Origin: Polyangiales bacterium | GTDB taxonomy: Bacteria; Myxococcota_A; Polyangia; Polyangiales; Ga0077539 | Direction of reading: 5' to 3' | NCBI GenBank assembly: GCA_044229975.1 | Contig: JBGARZ010000002.1 | Span: forward strand, 352,001 to 416,000 | Length of the DNA: 64,000 nucleotides | In this document: positions 50,154-64,000 of the stretch, in pieces | Numbering within the stretch: the stretch's first letter is position 1 | How the letters are laid out: the number at the start of each line of letters is the position of its first letter | Notes under the pieces: model-generated | Database searches by the model: none | The model's input: only the letters and a program-made list of their open reading frames with translations | Told to the model about the DNA's origin: nothing | Made by a program: the position numbers and the translations under genes

Positions 50154-51923
50154 TCACTGCGCGGGCGCGATCACGGGCATCGCATGCGCTGCGGCGGCCG
50201 GGCGCCCCTCCTCGGGCGCGTTGGCGCGCGAGTGCCGTAGCTCGACGCGCGCGCCGGGCTGGGTGGTGCCCGAGTACACGCCATGCCACCCGGCGGGCAG
50301 CACCGGGTCGGCCCAGAGAAACACCCACCGCGCGTCGCCCGGGCTCAGGTTGATGCAGCCGTGCGACATCCTCCACCCGAAGTAGCTGTGCCAGAACGCC
50401 CCGTGCAGCGCGTACGACCCGTGGAAGTACATCACCCACGGCACGTCCTCGATGCTGTACGGACCGTCGCCCGCCGTGTCGCCGTCCATCGTCGTGGTGA
50501 TGTGCCGCGACTGGATGCGGAAGCTCCCGGTGGGCGACTCGAACTCGTGCGTCTGGTCGCGTGACCGCCCCGCGCGCCCCGACGAGATGACCGTGGCGAA
50601 CACCGGGCGCGGGCCCTCGTACGCGACGAGCACCTGCTCATCGAGGTCGACGTCGATCCACTTCTCCGTCGGGCCGACGCCTTCGGGGGGCGTCCGCAGG
50701 ATGGCGCGGCGCACGTTGCGCTGGTTGACCGCGTGGCCGTCGACGGTGCGCCAGAACACCTGTCCGCCCGAGCGAATCGGCGGTGTGTCGCTGAGCGCGA
50801 AGCTGGTGAGGCGCGGCACCCGGCGGTGCGACGAGGCGCCCTGTCCGTTGGCGTAGGGCGTGTACTCCCACCCGGCCTCGCTCACCATCCACGCCATTGG
50901 GAGGTGGTGCGTCTCGTCGAGCACCTGTCCGCGAAACGGCGACCAGTTGCGGACGTTGGAGAGGCGCCCGTTGCGCACGAAGCCGCCGCTCTGGGTGCGC
51001 CAGTAGACGTCGCCCGCGGAGGAGTCGCGCACGGTGCGGTCGAGCGCCACGTACATGCCCGAGAGCAGCCGTCGGATGACGGGACCACCACGCTCGCCCG
51101 CGAGGTCGGACAGCCTCGGTGGGCCGCCCGCGTCGCGCACCTCGGCGACGCGACGCGCCTGGCGGTTTTCGGTGGTGTCGCCCGGATCAGCGGCGGTGCC
51201 CGCCGCGACGGTGACGGGAGTACCGGCGTCGAGGTCGGTGGCCGACGCGGCCTCGCCGCCATCGGGCGTCGCGCGGGAGAAGCGCCACGGCTCGTACTCG
51301 TGGAGGTCGGCCATGGTCGGCAGGCGCCGGTACATGATCGAGCGGCCGTAGTTGATCGCGTAGGTGTACGGCATCGCCGCGTCGAGGTCGGGCTGCGCGG
51401 GCGGGCGGTAGCCGCGGTTGGGCATCGGGGCCGCGAAGTTGCCGCCGACGCAGACGAAGCCGCCCCCGCGAACGTGGTACCAGCCGCCCTCGGGGTGGTC
51501 GCGGTGCACGATGCAGCCGTCACGACCGACGGGCCCGTCGAGGACGTCGACGACAGCGCCCGCGCGCATGTAGCCGAGCGCCTGCGCCTCGCGGCGGGCC
51601 TCGACGCGCACGGGCGTCCAGGTGGCGAGGGCGATGATCTGGGTGGGCCGCTCGATGACGCCCGCGTCGAAGGGAGGTGGGGTCGCAGCGAGCGTGGCGG
51701 GCGCGGCGGTGGGAGCATCGACGGAGGCGTCGACGAGGGCGACGGGAGACGGCGTGGGCTCGGTGACGAGCGTGGGCGTCACGGTGGGAGGCGCCGGGTC
51801 GCGCAGGGCGAAGATCACCGCCGCAGGGATGGCCCCCCAGAGCGCAGCACGAATCGAGTGGGACCACGGAGAGCGAGGCACGCGGGTGACCTGGAGCGCG
51901 GCGGTGGGCAGGGAGTCGTCCAC
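50154..51923 (-). CDS. L,D-transpeptidase (YkuD) family protein
   Basis: KWIDVDLDEQ, ISSG, TG.FRI, ALHGAFWH..SHGCINL; start approximate. Confidence 0.9.
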   Translation of the reverse strand: MDDSLPTAALQVTRVPRSPWSHSIRAALWGAIPAAVIFALRDPAPPTVTPTLVTEPTPSPVALVDASVDAPTAAPATLAATPPPFDAGVIERPTQIIALATWTPVRVEARREAQALGYMRAGAVVDVLDGPVGRDGCIVHRDHPEGGWYHVRGGGFVCVGGNFAAPMPNRGYRPPAQPDLDAAMPYTYAINYGRSIMYRRLPTMADLHEYEPWRFSRATPDGGEAASATDLDAGTPVTVAAGTAADPGDTTENRQARRVAEVRDAGGPPRLSDLAGERGGPVIRRLLSGMYVALDRTVRDSSAGDVYWRTQSGGFVRNGRLSNVRNWSPFRGQVLDETHHLPMAWMVSEAGWEYTPYANGQGASSHRRVPRLTSFALSDTPPIRSGGQVFWRTVDGHAVNQRNVRRAILRTPPEGVGPTEKWIDVDLDEQVLVAYEGPRPVFATVISSGRAGRSRDQTHEFESPTGSFRIQSRHITTTMDGDTAGDGPYSIEDVPWVMYFHGSYALHGAFWHSYFGWRMSHGCINLSPGDARWVFLWADPVLPAGWHGVYSGTTQPGARVELRHSRANAPEEGRPAAAAHAMPVIAPAQ

Positions 51924-52047
51924 CCGCGGCGGCAACGCTCCCTCTACCGCAATTCCGAGCGCGATCAACCGTCCGAAGTGACGAGCCCTCGCGGCCTTGC
52001 CACGGCTCTTCACATTCCCGTTGGCGAGGCACTACCGTGCGGCCGAC

Positions 52048-53523
52048 GTGAGCCGCGCCCTCGACCTGCTCCGCGACCGACTCGCCGCCACCGCCCTCGG
52101 CGCGCGCGGACTCACCCTCGACGACCCCGACGGTGACCTCCTCGGACTCTCCTTCGAGGGCGACGACACCGGCGTGCGGGCGGCCGTGCGGCTCGTGCGC
52201 GTCCCTTCGCTCGCGTCCCTTCGCGTCGAAGGCCGCTGGATCGAGGTGACCATCGCTCCGTCCCTCCTCGCCGAGGCCGCTGCGCCGGTGGTGCTCGTCG
52301 TCCACGACCCGACGGGGCACGCGGTCTGGGCGACGCGCGAAGAGCTTCTCTCCCGTCTACCGAACGCGACGGCGGACGAATCGTGGCAGGTGCGCCTGAG
52401 CGCCCATGCGGGGGTCGGTGGCTTCGGTCTGCATCGGATGATCTTCGCGTGTGCGATGGGTGTGCTGCGAGCCGTGACGGCGGCTCCCATCGATGGGCTC
52501 GAACCCGGCGCGGTGCGAACGAAGACCCTGCTCCGTCGCTTCCTCGACGAGGGCGAAGGCTTCGACGCGTCGCTCGCCGATCTGCGTGCGCTCGCGGTGC
52601 CCGGGTGGTTCGTCGCGACGCACTCGACGGCGAAGGACGAGGCGACCGTCACCTTCGCAACACCCGCGTACGTCGAGCGGCTCGCGGTGGAGCTGCGCGG
52701 CGCGTTGGAGTCGCTCACGGCTCGTGATTGCGCGATGCGATGTGTCCAGGGTGGCGCGCTGCGGTCCATGTGGAGCAACGACCTCTCGCCTGCGACGGTG
52801 GCCTTCGTGCTGCGGCTCGATCACGCGCGCAACACCCTCGAACTCGAGGCGTCGATGCGCGGTGACCCTGCTTCGGCGGCGACGCTCGCGGTGGCAGCGC
52901 GCTTCGTCTGGCGCTTCGCGCAGGGAGGTCATGTGTCGCTCCTACCCGGGTGCAGCGCGGCGGGCGTGAGCGTTGGGTGCTTCCTCCCCGCGCAGGAGAG
53001 GCCGACGGTGTCGCACGGCGCGGTGGAGACGCTCGACGCGCTCGCGGCCATCGAGCGAAGCGTCGGTCACCCCTTCGACATCGCGCCCGGGCAGCTCGCC
53101 GACCCGATGCTGGCGGACGCTGTCCGCGAGCTGTTGCTGGTGCGATCGTCGGGGCGGGTCGAGCGACTCGCGACCTCGATGCGCTTGTCCCTCACGGCCG
53201 CGGAGGTGAGGCGCCTGCTCGACGCGTCGGGCTTTCAGCGGCGCGTGTCGTTTCGCATGCCCGCGTCGCGGGTGAGCCAGACCCTGATGGGCCTCCCGGT
53301 GGCGCTCGGATCGCGCGTGCAGGAGGTGACCGGAACGCTGGTGCAGTCGCCGGGAGCCCTCGCGACCTTCGTGGCCACGCTCTCGCCTGATGAGCAGGTC
53401 GACCTGGAGCTCAGCGCGGTCGAGGTGCGGGAGTTCTATGAGCTCGCTTCGCCGGGAGCGCCCACCACGGCACCGACGGCCACTCGTGGTGCTCCCAGTG
53501 GTAGCCGAAGTGGAAGCACGTGA
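52048..53523 (+). CDS. hypothetical protein with degenerate DUF4365-like N-terminus
   Basis: Long ORF with natural composition; PVVLVVHDP..AVW segment; 3' end overlaps crtW convergently. Confidence 0.6.
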   Translation: MSRALDLLRDRLAATALGARGLTLDDPDGDLLGLSFEGDDTGVRAAVRLVRVPSLASLRVEGRWIEVTIAPSLLAEAAAPVVLVVHDPTGHAVWATREELLSRLPNATADESWQVRLSAHAGVGGFGLHRMIFACAMGVLRAVTAAPIDGLEPGAVRTKTLLRRFLDEGEGFDASLADLRALAVPGWFVATHSTAKDEATVTFATPAYVERLAVELRGALESLTARDCAMRCVQGGALRSMWSNDLSPATVAFVLRLDHARNTLELEASMRGDPASAATLAVAARFVWRFAQGGHVSLLPGCSAAGVSVGCFLPAQERPTVSHGAVETLDALAAIERSVGHPFDIAPGQLADPMLADAVRELLLVRSSGRVERLATSMRLSLTAAEVRRLLDASGFQRRVSFRMPASRVSQTLMGLPVALGSRVQEVTGTLVQSPGALATFVATLSPDEQVDLELSAVEVREFYELASPGAPTTAPTATRGAPSGSRSGST

Positions 53524-54154
53524 GCAGCGACAGCGCGGGCGCGTAGTCGTTGCTGGTCGCGCGGTGCGCGTCGACGTAGCCGCCGGGTGGGGTGCGGTGC
53601 GGGAGGAAGGTTCCGAAGTAGAAGAGCTGCGCGGTGGAGGCGAGCGCGGGCAGCACCCACAGCGCCAGCAGTCGCCACTGCGAGACGTGCGCGAGGTGCT
53701 GGAGCATGTTGAAGATGACGGCGTGCCCGACGATCTGCGGCCAGCGGAGGTAGTGCCCGATGAAGCGCAGGTACCAGCGGCCGAAGCCCGTGTGTGCGCC
53801 GTCGTGGAAGTCGGGGTCGTCGGCGCTCGCGGGGTGCGCGTGGTGGCCGCGGTGTTCGCGCACGAGCACGTCGTAGGGGAAGAGCGCGTAGAGGCCGACG
53901 CCGAGCGCGCCGAGCGCGGCGTTGAGGCGCGGGCGACCGGGCGCGACCGTGCCGTGCATGGCGTCGTGGGCCACGATGAAGAGGCCCGTGTGGAGCCACG
54001 TGCGGAGCGCGATGAGCGGCAGCCAGAGCGGTAGCGGGAGCCACGCCGCGGGAGCAGCGAGCGCGACGGTGAGGGTGAGCGCCCACGCCGCGACGATGAG
54101 CGCGCCGAGGGCGAACCCGGCGAGGGGCTTCGTCGCTGTGGGCGAGGCGTTCAA
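53411..54154 (-). CDS. crtW: beta-carotene ketolase (fatty acid desaturase superfamily)
   Basis: His boxes TGLFIVAHDAMHG, HRGHH..DPDF, QLFYFGTFLPH, TCFHFGYHWEHH..P.VPWWALP; TTG start overlaps the upstream TGA. Confidence 0.88.
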   Translation of the reverse strand: MNASPTATKPLAGFALGALIVAAWALTLTVALAAPAAWLPLPLWLPLIALRTWLHTGLFIVAHDAMHGTVAPGRPRLNAALGALGVGLYALFPYDVLVREHRGHHAHPASADDPDFHDGAHTGFGRWYLRFIGHYLRWPQIVGHAVIFNMLQHLAHVSQWRLLALWVLPALASTAQLFYFGTFLPHRTPPGGYVDAHRATSNDYAPALSLLTCFHFGYHWEHHEWPSVPWWALPAKRAHRTPAPRPR

Positions 54155-56103
54155 CGCACGTTGATTTCGGGGAGGCCGCAGCGCACGCCGATGGCGTCGA
54201 GCTCGGAGCCCGAGCGCCCGAAGAAGGTCGTCACCGCGGTGTGCTGCCCCGCGCTCGCGTTGGGGCACTCGTAGTTGAAGACGGTGCCGCCGGTGCCGCC
54301 GTAGTCACCGCGAGCGGCGGTGCCCACGAGCTCCAGACGCCAGCCGGAGGTGGCAGAGCCGACGACGTTCCAGTAGCCGCAGGTGAAGGCGAAGCGGTCG
54401 ACGCGCGACCCTGAGCGCCCGCTGATGCCGGACACGAACGACCCCGACTCGCAGCTCGCCGAGAAGGGGGTCCCTCCGCTGCCGCCGCGCACCCCGGGGA
54501 TCGTCGTCGGGGGCACCGCGCGGACGTAGTAGCGAAACGGCGTCACGGTCCGGTCTTCCTGGAGCGAGAGCCGCATGCAGCGCACGCCGAGCTGATCGAC
54601 GCGAGACCCGGCGCGCCCGTCGAAGCCGACCGCCGCTCCGCTCGCGCAGATGTCGGTAAACGAACCGCCGCCGCCGCCGCCGTACTGCGGGCTGCTGGCG
54701 GTGTCGCCCGGCGTTCCGATGCCGGTGGGGCAGCCGTCGTCCACCACGCCGTCGCAGTCGTTGTCCGCGCCGTCGCAGACCTCCGTCACGGTGCGCCCGC
54801 ACGCGCCGCAATTTGCAGGCGTGTTGAGCGGGGTCTCGCAGCCATTGCCGTAGATCCCGTCGCAGTTGCCGAAGCCCGATCCGCACGCGGTGATCTGGCA
54901 CATCGACCCCGCGCACCCGGTGCTCGCGTTGGGCGCCGAGCACGCGCGACCGCACGCTCCGCAGTGGGCCTCGCTGCTACGCGCGTCGGTTTCGCAGCCG
55001 TTGGCGTCGTCGCCGTCGCAGCTCGCGTAGCCCGACGCGCACACCAGGGCGCACGCGCGGGACACACACGCCGCCGGGGCGTTGGGGCGCGACGGGCAGA
55101 CGGTGCCGCAGGCGCCGCACTGGGTGGGCGACGTGACGAGGTCGACCTCGCAGCCGTTGCCGGGGCTGCCGTCGCAATCGGCGAAGCCCACCTCGCAGGT
55201 GATCCCGCAGCGGCCCACCACGCAGGTGCGCGTCGAGACGTGCGGACCGATCGGGCACACGGTCGCGCAGGACCCGCAGTGATCGACGTCGGTCTCGGCG
55301 TTGACCTCGCAGCCGTTGGCCGCGGCGCCGTCGCAGTTGGCATACCCGGAGATGCAGGTGCCGACGTTGCACGTTCCGCCGCTGCACGCGCCGACGGCGT
55401 TGGGCAGGCCGCAGCGGTTGTCGCAGGCGCCGCAGCTCACCGTGCTCGCCATGAGGTTGACGCAGGCGCCCGAGCAGCAGGTCTCGCCCGTCGGGCACGC
55501 GCTCGTGGCGCTGCACCCGGCGACGCAGAGACCGCCGGCGCACTGGCGGCCGACGGGGCAGTCGGTGTCGGCGACGCACTGGGCGCACTCGTGGCGCGAG
55601 GTGTCGCAGCGCGTCCGCGTGGCGCCGCCGTCGGCGACGGAGAGGCAGCCCTCGTCGCTGCGGCAGCCCGCGACGCAGGTGAGGGTCGCGGGGTCGCAGT
55701 GGCGCGTGGGCTCGCAGGTGTCGGCCGCGGGAAGGCATTGCACGCAGCGCCCGGTGAGCGTGTCGCAGCTCCGACCGGCGGGGTCGGTCGCGCAGTCGGC
55801 GTTCGATCGACAGCTCGCCGTGTCGGCGGTGGGCGTATCCATCGTCGAGGGCGTGTCGATGGTGGGCGGCGTGTCCATCGACGCGGGGACGTCCGGGGTC
55901 GAGGCGTCGACGCCGAGGTCGATGACCGTTGGGACGTCTCGGGTTGCGCCGGTGTCCTCGCCCGCGTCTTCGACCACGCCGACGTCGGGGACGATGACCT
56001 CTGCCACGTCGCCCGCGTCACACGCCGCGAAGAGCGCGCCCGCCGTGAGGAGGAGTGCTGATCGATGAACCTTCGAGACCCGACCGACGCGCAGTGACCA
56101 CAT
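54151..56103 (-). CDS. Cys-rich repeat lipoprotein with MopE-like motif and C-terminal jacalin/beta-prism-like domain
   Basis: Lipobox FAAC, acidic linker, 4x G..CDG...NGCE...CG.C repeats, EVCDGADNDCDGVVDDGC, three GG.GG..F..C..GR.GS..D repeats. Confidence 0.85.
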   Translation of the reverse strand: MWSLRVGRVSKVHRSALLLTAGALFAACDAGDVAEVIVPDVGVVEDAGEDTGATRDVPTVIDLGVDASTPDVPASMDTPPTIDTPSTMDTPTADTASCRSNADCATDPAGRSCDTLTGRCVQCLPAADTCEPTRHCDPATLTCVAGCRSDEGCLSVADGGATRTRCDTSRHECAQCVADTDCPVGRQCAGGLCVAGCSATSACPTGETCCSGACVNLMASTVSCGACDNRCGLPNAVGACSGGTCNVGTCISGYANCDGAAANGCEVNAETDVDHCGSCATVCPIGPHVSTRTCVVGRCGITCEVGFADCDGSPGNGCEVDLVTSPTQCGACGTVCPSRPNAPAACVSRACALVCASGYASCDGDDANGCETDARSSEAHCGACGRACSAPNASTGCAGSMCQITACGSGFGNCDGIYGNGCETPLNTPANCGACGRTVTEVCDGADNDCDGVVDDGCPTGIGTPGDTASSPQYGGGGGGSFTDICASGAAVGFDGRAGSRVDQLGVRCMRLSLQEDRTVTPFRYYVRAVPPTTIPGVRGGSGGTPFSASCESGSFVSGISGRSGSRVDRFAFTCGYWNVVGSATSGWRLELVGTAARGDYGGTGGTVFNYECPNASAGQHTAVTTFFGRSGSELDAIGVRCGLPEINVR

Positions 56104-56114
56104 GGCCACGCAGC

Positions 56115-56777
56115 CTAGCGGACCACGGCGCTTCGTGGGGAGGGACTCTGCCGCGGGGCGCGCACCTCGCGCTGACACTCCGACGCCTGCCGGTCGGCGT
56201 CGATCGCGGACAGCACGTATGAGCGCGGCGTCACCGAGAGGCGCGCCCGGTCACGACACATCGCGTCGCGCACCCGCAGGTGGGCTCCGACCGTCACGCG
56301 AACGCGGTGGGCGTCGTCGCCCGGCGGGTCGCTGGCATGGGCCGCGAGGTCGAGCGCGACGGCCTGCCAGAGGTCGTCGTTGCTGCCGCTGCACATCGTC
56401 GTGAGCGAGCTCGTCACGGCCTCGGCGCGCCGGTGATGGGCGTCGGTGGCGATGACCCGCAGCGGCCGACGCGCGACCTCGTCGCCCCAGCTCCGTCGCG
56501 AGACCGCGACGCGCAGGTCGTCGCAGTCGGCCTGGAGGAGAGCCCGCTGCGCGCCCGCCACCTCGCCCAGTCCGCCGCTGTCGCGCGCGTCCTGTGCGAG
56601 TCGGCCGAGGTCGCGGCGGGTCGCGTCGCCGCACGAGCAGATGCGCTCGGCGCGCGTCCACCACGTCGCCCGGTCGCGCCGCGCCCGCACCGCGAAGCCT
56701 GCGCCGACGAAGGCCAGCGCCGCGCCGACGACGACGCCAACGAGGGCCTTCCGAGAGGGAGCGTCGGCCACGCTCAC
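56115..56777 (-). CDS. membrane-anchored Cys-containing hypothetical protein
   Basis: GTG start overlaps the upstream stop (GTGA); N-terminal TM, helical domain with 6 Cys. Confidence 0.68.
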   Translation of the reverse strand: MSVADAPSRKALVGVVVGAALAFVGAGFAVRARRDRATWWTRAERICSCGDATRRDLGRLAQDARDSGGLGEVAGAQRALLQADCDDLRVAVSRRSWGDEVARRPLRVIATDAHHRRAEAVTSSLTTMCSGSNDDLWQAVALDLAAHASDPPGDDAHRVRVTVGAHLRVRDAMCRDRARLSVTPRSYVLSAIDADRQASECQREVRAPRQSPSPRSAVVR

Positions 56778-58642
56778 TCGCCCCGCAGGTGCGGGTCGAC
56801 GAACAGCGGCACCCGGAAGGTCGCGTTGAGCGCGTAGTGCTCGGTCGGCGCAGCAGCGCGCTGGCCGAAGCGACCCAGCACCAGGCCCGACCCCTCCATC
56901 ACCCACGCGATGAAGGTCTCCGCGGCCACGCGTCCGAGGCGCGCGCACTGCACCTCGGGCCGGTCGGCCTCGCCGTCGCCCACCGAGCGCCACGTCATGG
57001 CGTAGCGCTGGAGCGTGGCGAGACGGTCCCTCGCCCGTTGTCGCTCAGGATCGGCGCGCACCGCGAGCAGGGCGTCGCGCAGCACGTCGAGGGGGCGCTC
57101 GGCGTTGGGGAGCACCACGCGACCGAAGAGTTCCTTGCCCTCGTCGGCCGACCAGATGACCCGCGCGCCGTCGGAGCGCAGCTCCGCTTCACCGATGAAG
57201 TAGAGCCACAGCGCGAAGCCCAGCGCGCGCAGCTCGCCGACGTCCACCAGCCGCTGCGGCGCGCCAAAGCGCTCCACCAGGCCGACCGCCAGCGCCCCTT
57301 CGCCGCCCGGCACCGCCACGATGCGCGGGACGCTCTCGCCCGGCGTCCACCGCGCGAGCAGCGATCCCGTCTGCGGCGCCGCGACGCCGGGCTCCACCCG
57401 CGCGATCACCTCGCGCGAGAGGTGGATGCGAACGCCCCCCGCCTCGGCCTCGGCGGTCTGCGCCACGACCAGCCGAACGCTGTCGGGGAAGAGCACCGGA
57501 AACGCCGCCACGTCGGCTTCGGTGATGGCCGCGCGCCGCTGCGATCGCGCCGCGGCTGCGAGCAACGGGTTGAGCACGAGCGAGCGATAGCCCTGCGCGT
57601 TGGGGTGATCTTCGAGCCAGTGGGCCTGGCCGTGGCCGCGCGCCACGTTGGCGACGGACTCCAGGCGACCGACGCCCGCGAGCAGCTCGACGCCCGCCGT
57701 CGAGGCGCTGTCGGCCGCCATGCTGGTGCGCCCGGTGCCTGCGTCGCGCGACGTGTCCCGCGGGGCCATCCGCACCGTCACGACGGCGCGGCCGTTGGGG
57801 TCGACGAGGTCGACGGTTCCGCCTTCGCCGCGGATGGGCTGGAAGAAGAGCAGCTCCGCGAAGCGGGTGCCCCACCCCGGATCGCGCTGCGGCAGGTACG
57901 CGATGACCTCGCTCGCGTCGCTGCCGTTGCGCGGCACCACGCCGAGGCGCAGCGGGCCGACCCCGCGAGCGTCCGCCGAGAGCGCGCCCACCGACGGCGC
58001 CGTCTCGCCGAGCAGCACCTGCAAGCCCTTCTGCCACGGCGGCGCCGCTTCGTGTCCCGGCGACCACAAGCCGTTGCGCTCGAACCACCCGCGCCACTCG
58101 GCGAGCAGCTTCAGCGCGTCGGCGCGCTCGGCGCTGGCGTCGATGCGGGTCTTGAGATCGCTCCAGTAGTTTTCGCGCGCGACCCGCGGCGCGCACCACA
58201 GGAGACACATCGGATCGGCCCCGCCCACCAGCAGCCGTCGGCCTTCGGAGCCCTGTCGGCGCGCGTCGCGCAGGAGACCGAGAAACCGGCACTCGGGGCG
58301 CAGGTCGGCGAGCATCGCGCCGAGGTTGTCGACCTCGGGGCGGCGCAGGTCGGTGAGCTCCAGCGTGACCTCGCCGAGCACGAGACCGAGCAGGAGAAGA
58401 CGCCAGCGCTCGAAGGACTGCTGGAGCCGCGGGTTGACCAGCTCGGGCTGCGGCTGCTGGGCGCCCGGGTCGAGCAGGAGCTGCCCCAGCAGGTGGGACA
58501 TCATCTCGGCCTGCGCGAAGGGCGTCGGGAAGCTCTTGGTGCGCAGGTGCGCGGGCGTCGGCTGCCAGGCGCCCTTCTTCTGGTCGAGCGCGAAGGTGTC
58601 GGTGGTCGAGGCGTCGTTGGAGCCGGGGATGAGTTGGATCAC
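56774..58642 (-). CDS. hypothetical protein (622 aa), partner of the tubulin-like gene
   Basis: Starts 4 nt after the tubulin-like stop; SFPTPFAQA, RWRLLLLGL and VGGADPMCL segments. Confidence 0.8.
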   Translation of the reverse strand: MIQLIPGSNDASTTDTFALDQKKGAWQPTPAHLRTKSFPTPFAQAEMMSHLLGQLLLDPGAQQPQPELVNPRLQQSFERWRLLLLGLVLGEVTLELTDLRRPEVDNLGAMLADLRPECRFLGLLRDARRQGSEGRRLLVGGADPMCLLWCAPRVARENYWSDLKTRIDASAERADALKLLAEWRGWFERNGLWSPGHEAAPPWQKGLQVLLGETAPSVGALSADARGVGPLRLGVVPRNGSDASEVIAYLPQRDPGWGTRFAELLFFQPIRGEGGTVDLVDPNGRAVVTVRMAPRDTSRDAGTGRTSMAADSASTAGVELLAGVGRLESVANVARGHGQAHWLEDHPNAQGYRSLVLNPLLAAAARSQRRAAITEADVAAFPVLFPDSVRLVVAQTAEAEAGGVRIHLSREVIARVEPGVAAPQTGSLLARWTPGESVPRIVAVPGGEGALAVGLVERFGAPQRLVDVGELRALGFALWLYFIGEAELRSDGARVIWSADEGKELFGRVVLPNAERPLDVLRDALLAVRADPERQRARDRLATLQRYAMTWRSVGDGEADRPEVQCARLGRVAAETFIAWVMEGSGLVLGRFGQRAAAPTEHYALNATFRVPLFVDPHLRGE

Positions 58643-58646
58643 GGCG

Positions 58647-60071
58647 TCAGCTCCGGAGGGCGGCGAGCAGCGAGCGCTCGATCTTCATGGCGAGCTCGGC
58701 GTCGGGGTCGGGCTGGTGCCCGCGGGCGCGCTCGGCCCCGGCCGTGGACTCGAACTGAAACGCATCGACCAGCAGCTTGAAGGCCTCAGGCGCCTTCCAC
58801 TGCCGGTGCTTGCGGACGGCGTAGAGCTGGCGCGCGCGCGGGTCGCCGAAGAGCGAGAGGTCGGTGTCGCCGAACACCTGCGCGAACCACGACGTGACGA
58901 AGCGGAGCTGGGCGCTGCGCGCTTCGAGGGCGTTGAGCACGCGCCGCGCGAAGGCCGAGTCGCGGTCGTGCTGCGCGCGGGCGACGTTGCTGATGAGCGA
59001 CCCCCAGGTGCTGCGCGCCTTCTCGTAGTCGAAGTCGACGAAGTCCGAGTCCTTCTGGCGAAACGACGCGTAGACCTCCTGAAGAATGAGCGCCTCCACG
59101 AGCCGCGCGCCGAGCGTGGCGTCGCGGGAGCCGCGCGGGGTGTTCCACTTGCGGCGCAGGGGCCAGGCGGGGTCGTGCTCGTCGTGCGAGAGGCCGTAGG
59201 TGCGGTGCATCGCGCGGGCCTGCGTGTCGGTCTTGTCGGGCAGCATCAGCAGGCCGTAGGCGGCGAGCAGGGGATACATGCTGACGGTCTCGTCGTTTTC
59301 CATCGCGGCGGGCACGGCCTTGATGTGCGCCGTGGGGTTGTCCGGAACGCCCAGCAGCACCGAGGCGTCGAGGAGCGCGCGGGTATACCGATAGAAGTAT
59401 TCGAGGCCGTGCCCCATCGAGGCGAGCAGGGTCGAGGTGTCGACGGTCTGCCCGGTGGTGGGCGGCAGGTCGAACCACCGCAACAGAAACGATCCGTAGA
59501 TGGGCTTCGCGGGCCCGACGGCCTCGCGCACCAGCTTGATGAGCTGGTGGGTGATGCCCGCGCCGGTGCCGCCGAGGAAGGAGCCCACGACAAAGATGCG
59601 CGCGGCGGTGCGGGCGCGGCCGAAGAGCGGGTCCATCGCGCCGCCCTTGCTCGACGCAAACACCGCGCTGCCGACGCTCGGATTGGCGAACATCCCCTTG
59701 CCGATGTCGACGCCCGCCGAGACGCCGACGCCGCCGTCCACGCCGCCCGACTCCTCGTCGTAGAAGAGCTCGAAGAGCTCGCGCTCCAACGGGTCGGCGC
59801 GGTCGTCGAGGAAGATCCGGCGGAAGGCCGTCTCCTTCATGGTGTCGCGCGCAAAGGGCGGGATCACCGCCTCGGCGCCTTCGAGCGGGTGAGGACACCC
59901 GGCGCTCACGGTGTTGCCGAAGGAGCGGAGCTTCACGGCGAGCCGCGAGTCGCTGTCGGCGTCGATGACGAAGGTCTCGATGGGCTCGGCGAGGGCGCCG
60001 ACCCGAAGGAGGCGCGCGACGGCGAGGGCGATGTGCTGTCCGCCGCCGCCGACGGCGATCACGAGGTCCAT
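58647..60071 (-). CDS. divergent tubulin/FtsZ-superfamily GTPase
   Basis: N-terminal IAVGGGGQ (T1), FVIDAD (T2), GMFANPSVGS (T3-like), GSFLGGTGAG (T4 signature); RBS GGGAGAG. Confidence 0.85.
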   Translation of the reverse strand: MDLVIAVGGGGQHIALAVARLLRVGALAEPIETFVIDADSDSRLAVKLRSFGNTVSAGCPHPLEGAEAVIPPFARDTMKETAFRRIFLDDRADPLERELFELFYDEESGGVDGGVGVSAGVDIGKGMFANPSVGSAVFASSKGGAMDPLFGRARTAARIFVVGSFLGGTGAGITHQLIKLVREAVGPAKPIYGSFLLRWFDLPPTTGQTVDTSTLLASMGHGLEYFYRYTRALLDASVLLGVPDNPTAHIKAVPAAMENDETVSMYPLLAAYGLLMLPDKTDTQARAMHRTYGLSHDEHDPAWPLRRKWNTPRGSRDATLGARLVEALILQEVYASFRQKDSDFVDFDYEKARSTWGSLISNVARAQHDRDSAFARRVLNALEARSAQLRFVTSWFAQVFGDTDLSLFGDPRARQLYAVRKHRQWKAPEAFKLLVDAFQFESTAGAERARGHQPDPDAELAMKIERSLLAALRS

Positions 60072-60108
60072 GTCGATGCTCTCCCGGGGTGAAGGCTGCG
60101 CGGTCTCT

Positions 60109-60633
60109 TCAGGTGCGGTTGGCGACGAGGCAACCCAGGAGGGTCACGACGAGAGTCGGGATGAGGCCGAGCACCAGCGCTCGCGCGAAGAGCTGGCTGC
60201 CGAGAAACACGTACTGCGAGAAGTCCGCCGAGTGCATGCACTGCTCGAGGATGTCGGCGCGCACCGGGTCCAGGCCCGCCACGGTGGTGCCGATGGCGCA
60301 CGCGAGGCCGACGCCCGTGAGGTAGCGACCGAAGGCGCTGCCCCAGAGCTTCTTGCGCATCACCACGAAGACCACGATGCCGATGAGCGAGGCGCCGACG
60401 GTGTAGCCCGCGGCGGAGATGAGCCCGTTCTTGCTCGCCTGCGTGCAGCTCTCCTGCGAGAGGTAGGAGGTGGGCGTCGCCGCGAACGACCCGCTGTTGT
60501 CACCGGTCGTCGTGGGCGCGGCGGGGACGGGTGCGGGCGCGACCGCGGCGTCGGCGCCATTGGCGGGTTGCGCGGGCTCGGCGGGCCAGCTCGGGGTGTT
60601 CGCGCGGGGTTGCAGGAGCAGGTTCGGGTGCAT
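60109..60633 (-). CDS. small membrane protein (about 3 TM) with Pro-rich N-terminus
   Basis: Three hydrophobic segments; first gene of the tubulin-like operon. Confidence 0.75.
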   Translation of the reverse strand: MHPNLLLQPRANTPSWPAEPAQPANGADAAVAPAPVPAAPTTTGDNSGSFAATPTSYLSQESCTQASKNGLISAAGYTVGASLIGIVVFVVMRKKLWGSAFGRYLTGVGLACAIGTTVAGLDPVRADILEQCMHSADFSQYVFLGSQLFARALVLGLIPTLVVTLLGCLVANRT

Positions 60634-60785
60634 TGCGGAGCGCCGGAGCAAAGCCCCCTTCGGGCACATGCGTCAAGGCCGTCGCACCGACGGCCGTCGG
60701 TGTCGCGAAGGTTCGCGGTGACCAGTGCGGCCGGAACATGCGACAGTCGTCGGGCACTCTCGTCTACGGAGGCTTTGGTGGTCCT

Positions 60786-63758
<2,973 letters not shown>

Positions 63759-63809: not shown

Positions 63810-64000
63810 GTGACCGAGGGCAACGACCCACCGCGCGATGCCTGGCTCGAAGTCGGGACCTCCGCATCCGAACCCGCTCCCCTCACCCAACCTCCCATCG
63901 CATCGGAGTCCTGGCTCCAGGCCGATCCCACCACCCCGGGCGCGGAGCCGGCGCGTCGCAAGGCCAAGGCCTCCGAGCGTGCCGCCCCGACCGCTGCCCA
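63810..64000 (+). CDS. hypothetical protein, 5' part only (runs off the right edge)
   Basis: GTG at 63810, open to the window end (MTEGNDPPRDAWLEV...). Confidence 0.45.
   Translation, partial: MTEGNDPPRDAWLEVGTSASEPAPLTQPPIASESWLQADPTTPGAEPARRKAKASERAAPTAA

Follow-up and report, generated by a model that had tools for sequence, protein, structure and literature searches.

The stretch of Polyangiales DNA analysed here (the window; 64,000 nucleotides, positions 352001-416000 of contig C38 of the organism's own genome, G000) carries a compact operon that encodes a divergent tubulin/FtsZ-fold protein, B, which lies outside canonical FtsZ. Comparison across genomes makes the locus a split form, fixed in its family, of a widespread module that pairs a tubulin-fold protein with an actin-fold one, its operon apparently broken up yet kept. 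The genes missing from the operon, among them one for a predicted actin-fold ATPase (E), lie on the plus strand of the same contig, 20-28 kb from B. The parts are listed below, in window numbering unless C38 is stated.

A: 60109-60633, minus strand; small membrane protein, 174 amino acids (aa) from the second ATG (186 aa from the one further upstream, at 60669)
B: 58647-60071, minus strand; tubulin/FtsZ-fold protein, putative GTPase, 474 aa
C: 56774-58642, minus strand; soluble protein, 622 aa
D: 56115-56777, minus strand; N-anchored Cys protein, 220 aa, a lineage-restricted accessory
E: C38:432727-435903, plus strand; predicted actin/MreB-fold ATPase, 1058 aa
G1: C38:435900-436211, plus strand; 103 aa, split-off tip of E
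G2: C38:436222-436626, plus strand; 134 aa, likely adaptor
V: C38:436601-438091, plus strand; predicted lipoprotein, 496 aa
H: C38:438105-439742, plus strand; Hsp70-like protein, 545 aa (Pfam HSP70, expectation value, E-value, 2.6e-41)
F: 60786-63758, plus strand; Cys-rich lipoprotein-like protein, 990 aa, divergent from A
U, first part: 63810-64000, plus strand; predicted single-pass membrane protein, 978 aa, running beyond the window end
U, complete: C38:415810-418746, plus strand; begins in the final 190 bases of the window

The operon and its distant partner genes

A, B, C and D form the run of four co-oriented, tightly packed minus-strand genes from which the original prediction started, with spacings of 37, 4 and -4 nucleotides for A-B, B-C and C-D, and the B gene is single-copy in its own genome. 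Two strong hydrophobic segments in A (Kyte-Doolittle, threshold 1.6) are accompanied by a weaker third that was recognised by eye; three transmembrane (TM) segments are predicted, and a conserved Cys pair likely forms a disulfide on the outer side. D has a single N-terminal hydrophobic segment and six Cys, in keeping with its earlier description as a TM-anchored Cys protein. In NCBIfam, A, B and C have no match, and that of D is weak (E-value 0.31).

These four genes had been taken for a minimal variant of an FtsZ-like operon, with no vWA- or actin-type gene adjacent. The absence of adjacent genes holds inside the window, but the notion of a minimal variant does not survive a search of the own genome by way of distant proteins, which located E, V and the Hsp70-like gene on the same contig; in other genomes E directly follows C. 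E contains the actin-fold motifs DFGTSNT, DEAxAA, DxGGGS and GNGW, and the top PDB matches of its profile are MreB and then Hsp70. Identity of E with SrfB finds no support, since neither three distant E proteins nor the own-genome E matches Pfam SrfB. G1 is matched by a profile of seven distant E tails (E-value 1.4e-8), which does not match the tail of the own E. That tail (C38:435300-435903) is Pro/Met/Gln-rich, with repeated Gln/Trp-containing segments, and replaces the tail that became G1; a similar one is found in locus L046. V carries DxSxS and TDG motifs, which we take to be a MIDAS-like (metal ion-dependent adhesion site) pattern, yet none of eight V members matches a Pfam vWA model.

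We compared 37 B loci, 27 near and 10 distant (distant B 30-36% identical), from relatives mostly labelled as Myxococcota, Polyangiales or Deltaproteobacteria metagenome-assembled genomes (MAGs); some of these loci and the family genomes considered below are the same records, and locus counts are therefore not independent of genome tallies. C follows B in 36 of the 37, the contig of the remaining one stopping inside B. A adjoins B in 35 (by tblastn, co-oriented in 29 and inverted in 3; recognised by profile in another 3); one further locus has no match for A and another no room for it. At the distant loci E (~820-1,200 aa) comes directly after C wherever there is room (7/7), usually followed by V and H, and among the near loci A-B-C-E-G1-G2-V is contiguous only in L046 (1/27; B 82% identical). 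D occupies the position that E holds in unbroken operons: it follows C in 13 of the 37 loci (13 of the 29 with room), and never where E adjoins C. The proposed four-gene linkage thus stands for A-B-C and fails for D, which only 11 of 20 high-quality family genomes contain. Nor do the flanking surface lipoproteins look like the system's target, as had been suggested, the Cys-rich lipoprotein gene downstream of D adjoining D in only 2 of 26 loci; F lies divergently beside A in 7 of 26.

The U gene is found upstream of A-B-C in six of the 37 loci, on the strand opposite to B in five. Its product combines a conserved N-terminal region with a variable C-terminal ectodomain, represented by an LCCL domain in L056 and by an F-like Cys-rich region in L048. 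At C20:208080-215614 of the own genome, the gene for a second U-type protein (1598 aa) and another Hsp70-like gene, 47% identical to H, point away from each other; the U-type protein shows, by eye, DnaJ-like CxxCxGxG zinc-finger motifs. There is no B, C or E near them, and the existence of such a second pair suggests that U and H form a chaperone-receptor pair of their own.

Two of the loci deserve separate description. L048 (101-877 and 5482-20816) holds a divergent copy of the whole system, in which A and V are inverted and a ZorB-like gene lies 9 kb upstream. In L056 (10585-13333 and 13102-16770) C occupies two open reading frames (ORFs), through a break or an assembly error, and E has three C-terminal GYF_2 domains. 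RNA-seq-derived contigs from relatives (two runs of one study, possibly DNA) contain portions of A, B and C and bridge the C-B and B-A junctions; they were not used as evidence.

Protein B among the tubulin-fold families

The tubulin/FtsZ motifs noticed originally in B are present and in order: AVGGGGQ (residues 6-12), IDAD (36-39), GMFANPSVG (126-134) and GSFLGGTGAG (163-172). None of the 17 divergent homologues departs from G8, G9, G11, D37, G126, P131, S164, G167-G170 or G172, so the motifs are not due to chance. The phosphate-binding loops T1 and T4 are intact, their GGxG and GGTGxG invariant in the same 17, with the variant LGGTGAG in place of GGGTG[ST]G. Residues 1 to ~305 match the tubulin family, the fold running through helix H7 and slightly further, and FtsZ, TubZ/RepX and PhuZ are among the matches by sequence profile and by structure. 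Most structural matches stop near residue 305; residues 320-473, judged only as part of the whole-B model and search, are all-helical in the structure model. The NxDxxD (T7) motif, already reported missing, is absent from B, from 19 of 19 rows of one alignment (A4) and from 17 of 17 rows of another (A5), whereas the own-genome FtsZ carries it as NVDFAD. The loop after H7 is unconserved across the aligned rows, and in the closest clade of B a DxxD (D279/D282) immediately follows the helix. Unfused full-length homologues measure ~445-497 aa. WrbA, returned by a single-sequence PDB search (E-value 0.04), was treated as noise. As a lead only, a close B homologue in the ESM Atlas is nearest to clusters of 453-511 aa, mostly from Bacteroidota and partly annotated Tubulin_2.

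The same structural matches, together with comparison to the own-genome ftsZ, confirm both the fold and the placement of B outside canonical FtsZ: a canonical ftsA-ftsZ pair resides on contig C11, and there is hardly any alignment between its FtsZ and the B profile (probability 9.8%). Against Pfam Tubulin B scores 19.4 bits, under the cut-off of 33, and against Tubulin_2 (PF13809) 25.5 bits, under the cut-off of 27 and over model positions 153-205 of 356 only. Above-cut-off Tubulin_2 matches occur in 95 of 401 genomes of the phylum, the strongest at 150-212 bits in ORFs mostly near or above 1,000 aa, and four such genomes also hold a B-type gene on another contig. In a quick maximum-likelihood tree of 38 rows, with several long branches and with branch support from the SH-like approximate likelihood ratio test (SH-aLRT) only, without bootstrap, 14 Tubulin_2 domains form one group (SH-aLRT 97), and 17 B rows group with six tubulins of the giant-ATPase module described below (SH-aLRT 97). 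The tree took 14 of the 25 Tubulin_2 loci returned, L132 being left out for lack of flank. Cross-profile medians were 19 bits against 82 bits.

The original prediction had turned to the divergent FtsZl1 and FtsZl2 families, which were defined by Makarova and Koonin (2010; PMC2875224). In the portion of that paper available to us, including supplementary file 5, FtsZl1 proteins are ~900-1,400 aa long with a long coiled coil, and their operons contain vWA-type, membrane and sometimes OmpA-domain neighbours, with a predicted role in membrane remodelling. Like them, B has a divergent tubulin GTPase domain and an apparently non-FtsZ C-terminus and coexists with canonical FtsZ. We nevertheless reject FtsZl1 membership: B has 474 aa, falls below the Tubulin_2 cut-off, sits on a separate branch, and is constantly accompanied by an actin-fold ATPase and by C, neither of them named in the same portion of the source. 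Supplementary file 5 lists one Hsp70 row and leaves many neighbours unannotated, so that an unrecognised actin-fold neighbour in FtsZl1 operons is possible. FtsZl2 proteins (PFL_1302 type) are described there as keeping T7, with an alpha/beta C-terminus, no conserved neighbours and no coiled coil; B shares the divergent tubulin domain and the lack of a coiled coil and differs in its missing T7, predicted helical C-terminus and conserved neighbours, a distinction drawn by description only. Tubulin_2 proteins serve as an outgroup in the available part of another study (PMC9871819). Unlike FtsZ/FtsA, CetZ and TubZ, B has no T7 motif and apparently no FtsZ C-terminal domain, and its gene context is different.

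Protein C, gene fusions and a giant-ATPase module

C had been proposed as a membrane partner of the GTPase; it is instead soluble, and its relationship is to the N-terminal part of a giant actin-fold ATPase. Its structure model (predicted local distance difference test, pLDDT, 80) has no Foldseek match at an E-value of 0.001 or below, and the ESM Atlas gave no usable match. Residues 23-152 are homologous to the N-terminal PTPFA/IPSPWA region of the giant ATPase (89%, E-value 2.3e-6). In other genomes the same parts are joined differently, with fused ORFs of ~1,500-1,600 aa: L070 has a B-C fusion; in L069 a single ORF spans B, a weakly C-like region and E; B and E share one ORF in L087; and in L088 B with a long extension precedes E. 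The arrangements found in nature (B|C|E|G1, B-C|E, B|C-E, B-C-E) show where the domains end and suggest that C is the part that couples the others. In L069 (1838-10427), genes for a small adaptor and an FHA-domain membrane protein come after the B-C-E ORF, and then a ZorB/MotB-like gene.

The giant ATPase belongs to a module in which lipoprotein, TM protein, tubulin and ATPase genes follow one another, as in a plasmid of Synechococcus sp. NIES-970 (AP017960.1, NIES970_27680-27710); NC_014503.1 and locus L103 provide further examples of the tubulin and giant ATPase. The ATPase is present on five cyanobacterial plasmids, two of which we inspected, and similar runs occur in four genomes of the phylum of the L051 host; the module as a whole is found in cyanobacteria and acidobacteria. 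The plasmid lead came from tblastn with the E of L070, whose weak match (E-value 0.1) is this related module; tblastn of the B and E of L051 against plasmids gave no match. Profile comparisons connect the module to our locus part by part: B with the module tubulins (hhalign, 99.7%, E-value 3.9e-27), E with the ATPase part of the giant protein (98.5%) and V with the module lipoprotein (91%). B, C plus E, and V are thus homologous to module parts, and the order of tubulin then ATPase is the same. In contrast to the module, however, the ATPase is here distributed over three genes (C, E and G1), C has grown to 622 aa, a zinc ribbon stands at the N-terminus of E, U and an Hsp70-like gene have been added, the operon is in two pieces, and no ZorAB-like genes are adjacent. 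A literature search that left subscription journals largely uncovered found no paper on a module of tubulin and actin-fold ATPase. One further giant ATPase, in L102, titled a Sphingobacterium MAG, is 86% identical to the Synechococcus plasmid protein, possibly through a binning artefact or a recent transfer.

Distribution, selection and possible functions

The 31 family genomes include 29 with B, 28 each with E, V and a U-type protein (in some cases the paralogue), and 17 with D. Every one of the 20 with a completeness of 90% or more has B, E, V and a U-type protein (20/20), and 11 have D; the two family genomes without B also have neither E nor V, at 76% and 82% completeness. Outside the family the distribution is patchy (9/401 and 6/251 genomes), and the range beyond the sampled genomes is a lower bound. 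Of the 401 phylum genomes, B is in 9, E in 11 and both in 8; inspection added three with both in one locus and placed one E match on a 2.2-kb contig. The genes compared appear to be under purifying selection, judged from pairwise ratios of nonsynonymous to synonymous substitution (dN/dS) against five close genomes, values that are rough because they were obtained by the Nei-Gojobori method on DNA of ~72% guanine plus cytosine. They are lowest for V (0.11; 0.02 on a 53-codon fragment), E (0.11-0.14), B (0.12-0.15) and C (0.13-0.17), intermediate for H and U (0.21 each), A (0.21-0.30) and D (0.22-0.39), and highest for F (0.52-0.58), the fastest-evolving gene compared, whose repeats may inflate the ratio.

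Helicase/nuclease, transporter, two-component and metabolic genes lie between the two halves. Among them, adjacent genes for proteins of 1019 and 1153 aa (C38:419519-426036), the second a UvrD helicase with a PD-(D/E)XK nuclease, are presumably an AddAB-like pair. Downstream of the operon, the window encodes a Cys-rich lipoprotein-like protein that combines MXAN_6577-like repeats and a MopE motif with a jacalin-like lectin domain at its C-terminus (54151-56103, minus strand), a fatty-acid-desaturase-family protein (53411-54268, minus) and a YkuD L,D-transpeptidase (50154-52013, minus). A 508-aa protein (51997-53523, plus) has no Pfam, NCBIfam or PADLOC match and is kept near the locus in five close relatives.

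We consider the chances about even that B works as a GTP switch, or as a scaffold, within a machine that is anchored in the envelope and has a constant envelope function, and in which C bridges to E. A, U and the lipoprotein V would make up its membrane-bound and outward-facing portion, binding a ligand in the envelope or outside the cell and handing the signal to B-C-E, assembling at the inner membrane, where C would couple B to the actin-fold ATPase. B, which has no T7 and apparently no FtsZ C-terminal domain, would not treadmill alone as FtsZ does, and its GTP hydrolysis would need a partner, for example C or E. The Hsp70-like H may assemble or dissolve the complex. The role most likely in this family would be local remodelling of membrane or wall, or a contact response, rather than episodic defence; retention throughout the family after the operon broke up favours such a constant role. 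Several observations weigh against this account. The homology of C to the giant ATPase spans only ~110 columns, and the C-like part of the fused proteins is a domain with an E-value of 0.031 in L069 and gives no profile match in L087 or L088. The A profile does not reach the module TM proteins (E-values 0.013-0.51), though the position is the same. Co-function at the near loci, where E so seldom follows C, rests on co-occurrence among related genomes that are not independent. The DxxD after H7 in the closest clade leaves room for a residual T7-like role, and the plasmid-borne or ZorAB-linked state of some of the patchily distributed relatives favours defence.

Defence, in which the membrane parts sense a phage or competitor and the tubulin, the actin-fold protein and the Hsp70 assemble above a threshold to arrest or kill the cell, is the less probable explanation, although one to be taken seriously. 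It draws on a ZorB-like gene in the same run in L069 (E-value 1.2e-7), on ZorA- and ZorB-like genes in L103 (8e-9 and 2e-14), on the plasmid-borne giant ATPases, on the variable ectodomains of U, and on a scattered occurrence outside the family combined with extra divergent B copies in 3 of the 31 family genomes. Tubulin and HSP70 are moreover predicted parts of GTPase-centred conflict systems, and in the part of Kaur et al. (2020; PMC7159879) available to us tubulin, HSP70 and vWA genes occur together in multicellular bacteria, the first two being paired here as well; the TRAFAC double GTPases, GAP1 and coiled-coil tubulins of those systems were seen in neither half, and neither showed a nuclease, an NADase or a comparable effector. 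None of nine own-genome proteins matches PADLOC at an E-value of 0.01 or below, ZorB-like matches are confined to L069, L103 and L048, and the mostly single-copy presence in all 20 high-quality family genomes, under purifying selection and after the operon split, speaks against defence. An autonomous cytoskeleton, with B forming its own GTP-dependent filament, anchored by A in the manner of CetZ or FtsZ, and E acting as an FtsA/MreB-like co-polymer that shapes the cell, seems improbable. The tubulin fold past H7, the DxxD and the family-wide retention agree with it, and FtsZ/FtsA is a known tubulin-actin pair, but the missing NxDxxD, the unconserved post-H7 loop and a predicted all-helical C-terminal region where FtsZ has a beta-sheet domain do not, and the fusion ORFs argue for a stoichiometric complex.

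Two further explanations fare worse. That the four genes are self-contained, with the GTPase acting through A and D on flanking surface lipoproteins, is very unlikely: the tight packing, the frequency of D after C and the occasional divergent F beside A speak for it, but the D query finds no match in 9 of the 20 high-quality family genomes, D never occurs where E adjoins C, the downstream lipoprotein seldom accompanies D, and E, V and H are on the same contig. We give hardly any credence to B as a division or segregation tubulin, either an FtsZ paralogue or a TubZ. Such a role would fit the profile and structural matches to FtsZ, TubZ/RepX and PhuZ, but not the separate ftsA-ftsZ pair with its poor alignment to B, nor a locus on a 1.08-Mb contig among ordinary chromosomal neighbours.

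A bolder form of the envelope-machine reading, which we regard as rather unlikely in its full extent, would make B-C-E a membrane-anchored tubulin-actin heteropolymer with C as a new-fold bridge and with its own Hsp70 and receptor, a once-mobile cassette domesticated by one myxobacterial family as core machinery for contact-triggered membrane remodelling, for example in predation or cell-cell interaction. Besides FtsZ/FtsA, we know of no well-studied bacterial pairing of a tubulin-fold with an actin-fold protein. The present locus displays how one such enzyme pair is wired, and its natural domain borders supply small soluble constructs for work on binding and GTPase activation. New in this locus are the division of the system into separate pieces, the addition of an Hsp70 and a receptor, and fixation throughout the family; retention in 20 of 20 high-quality genomes despite the break-up of the operon suggests that in this family a mobile cassette may have shifted to a core function.

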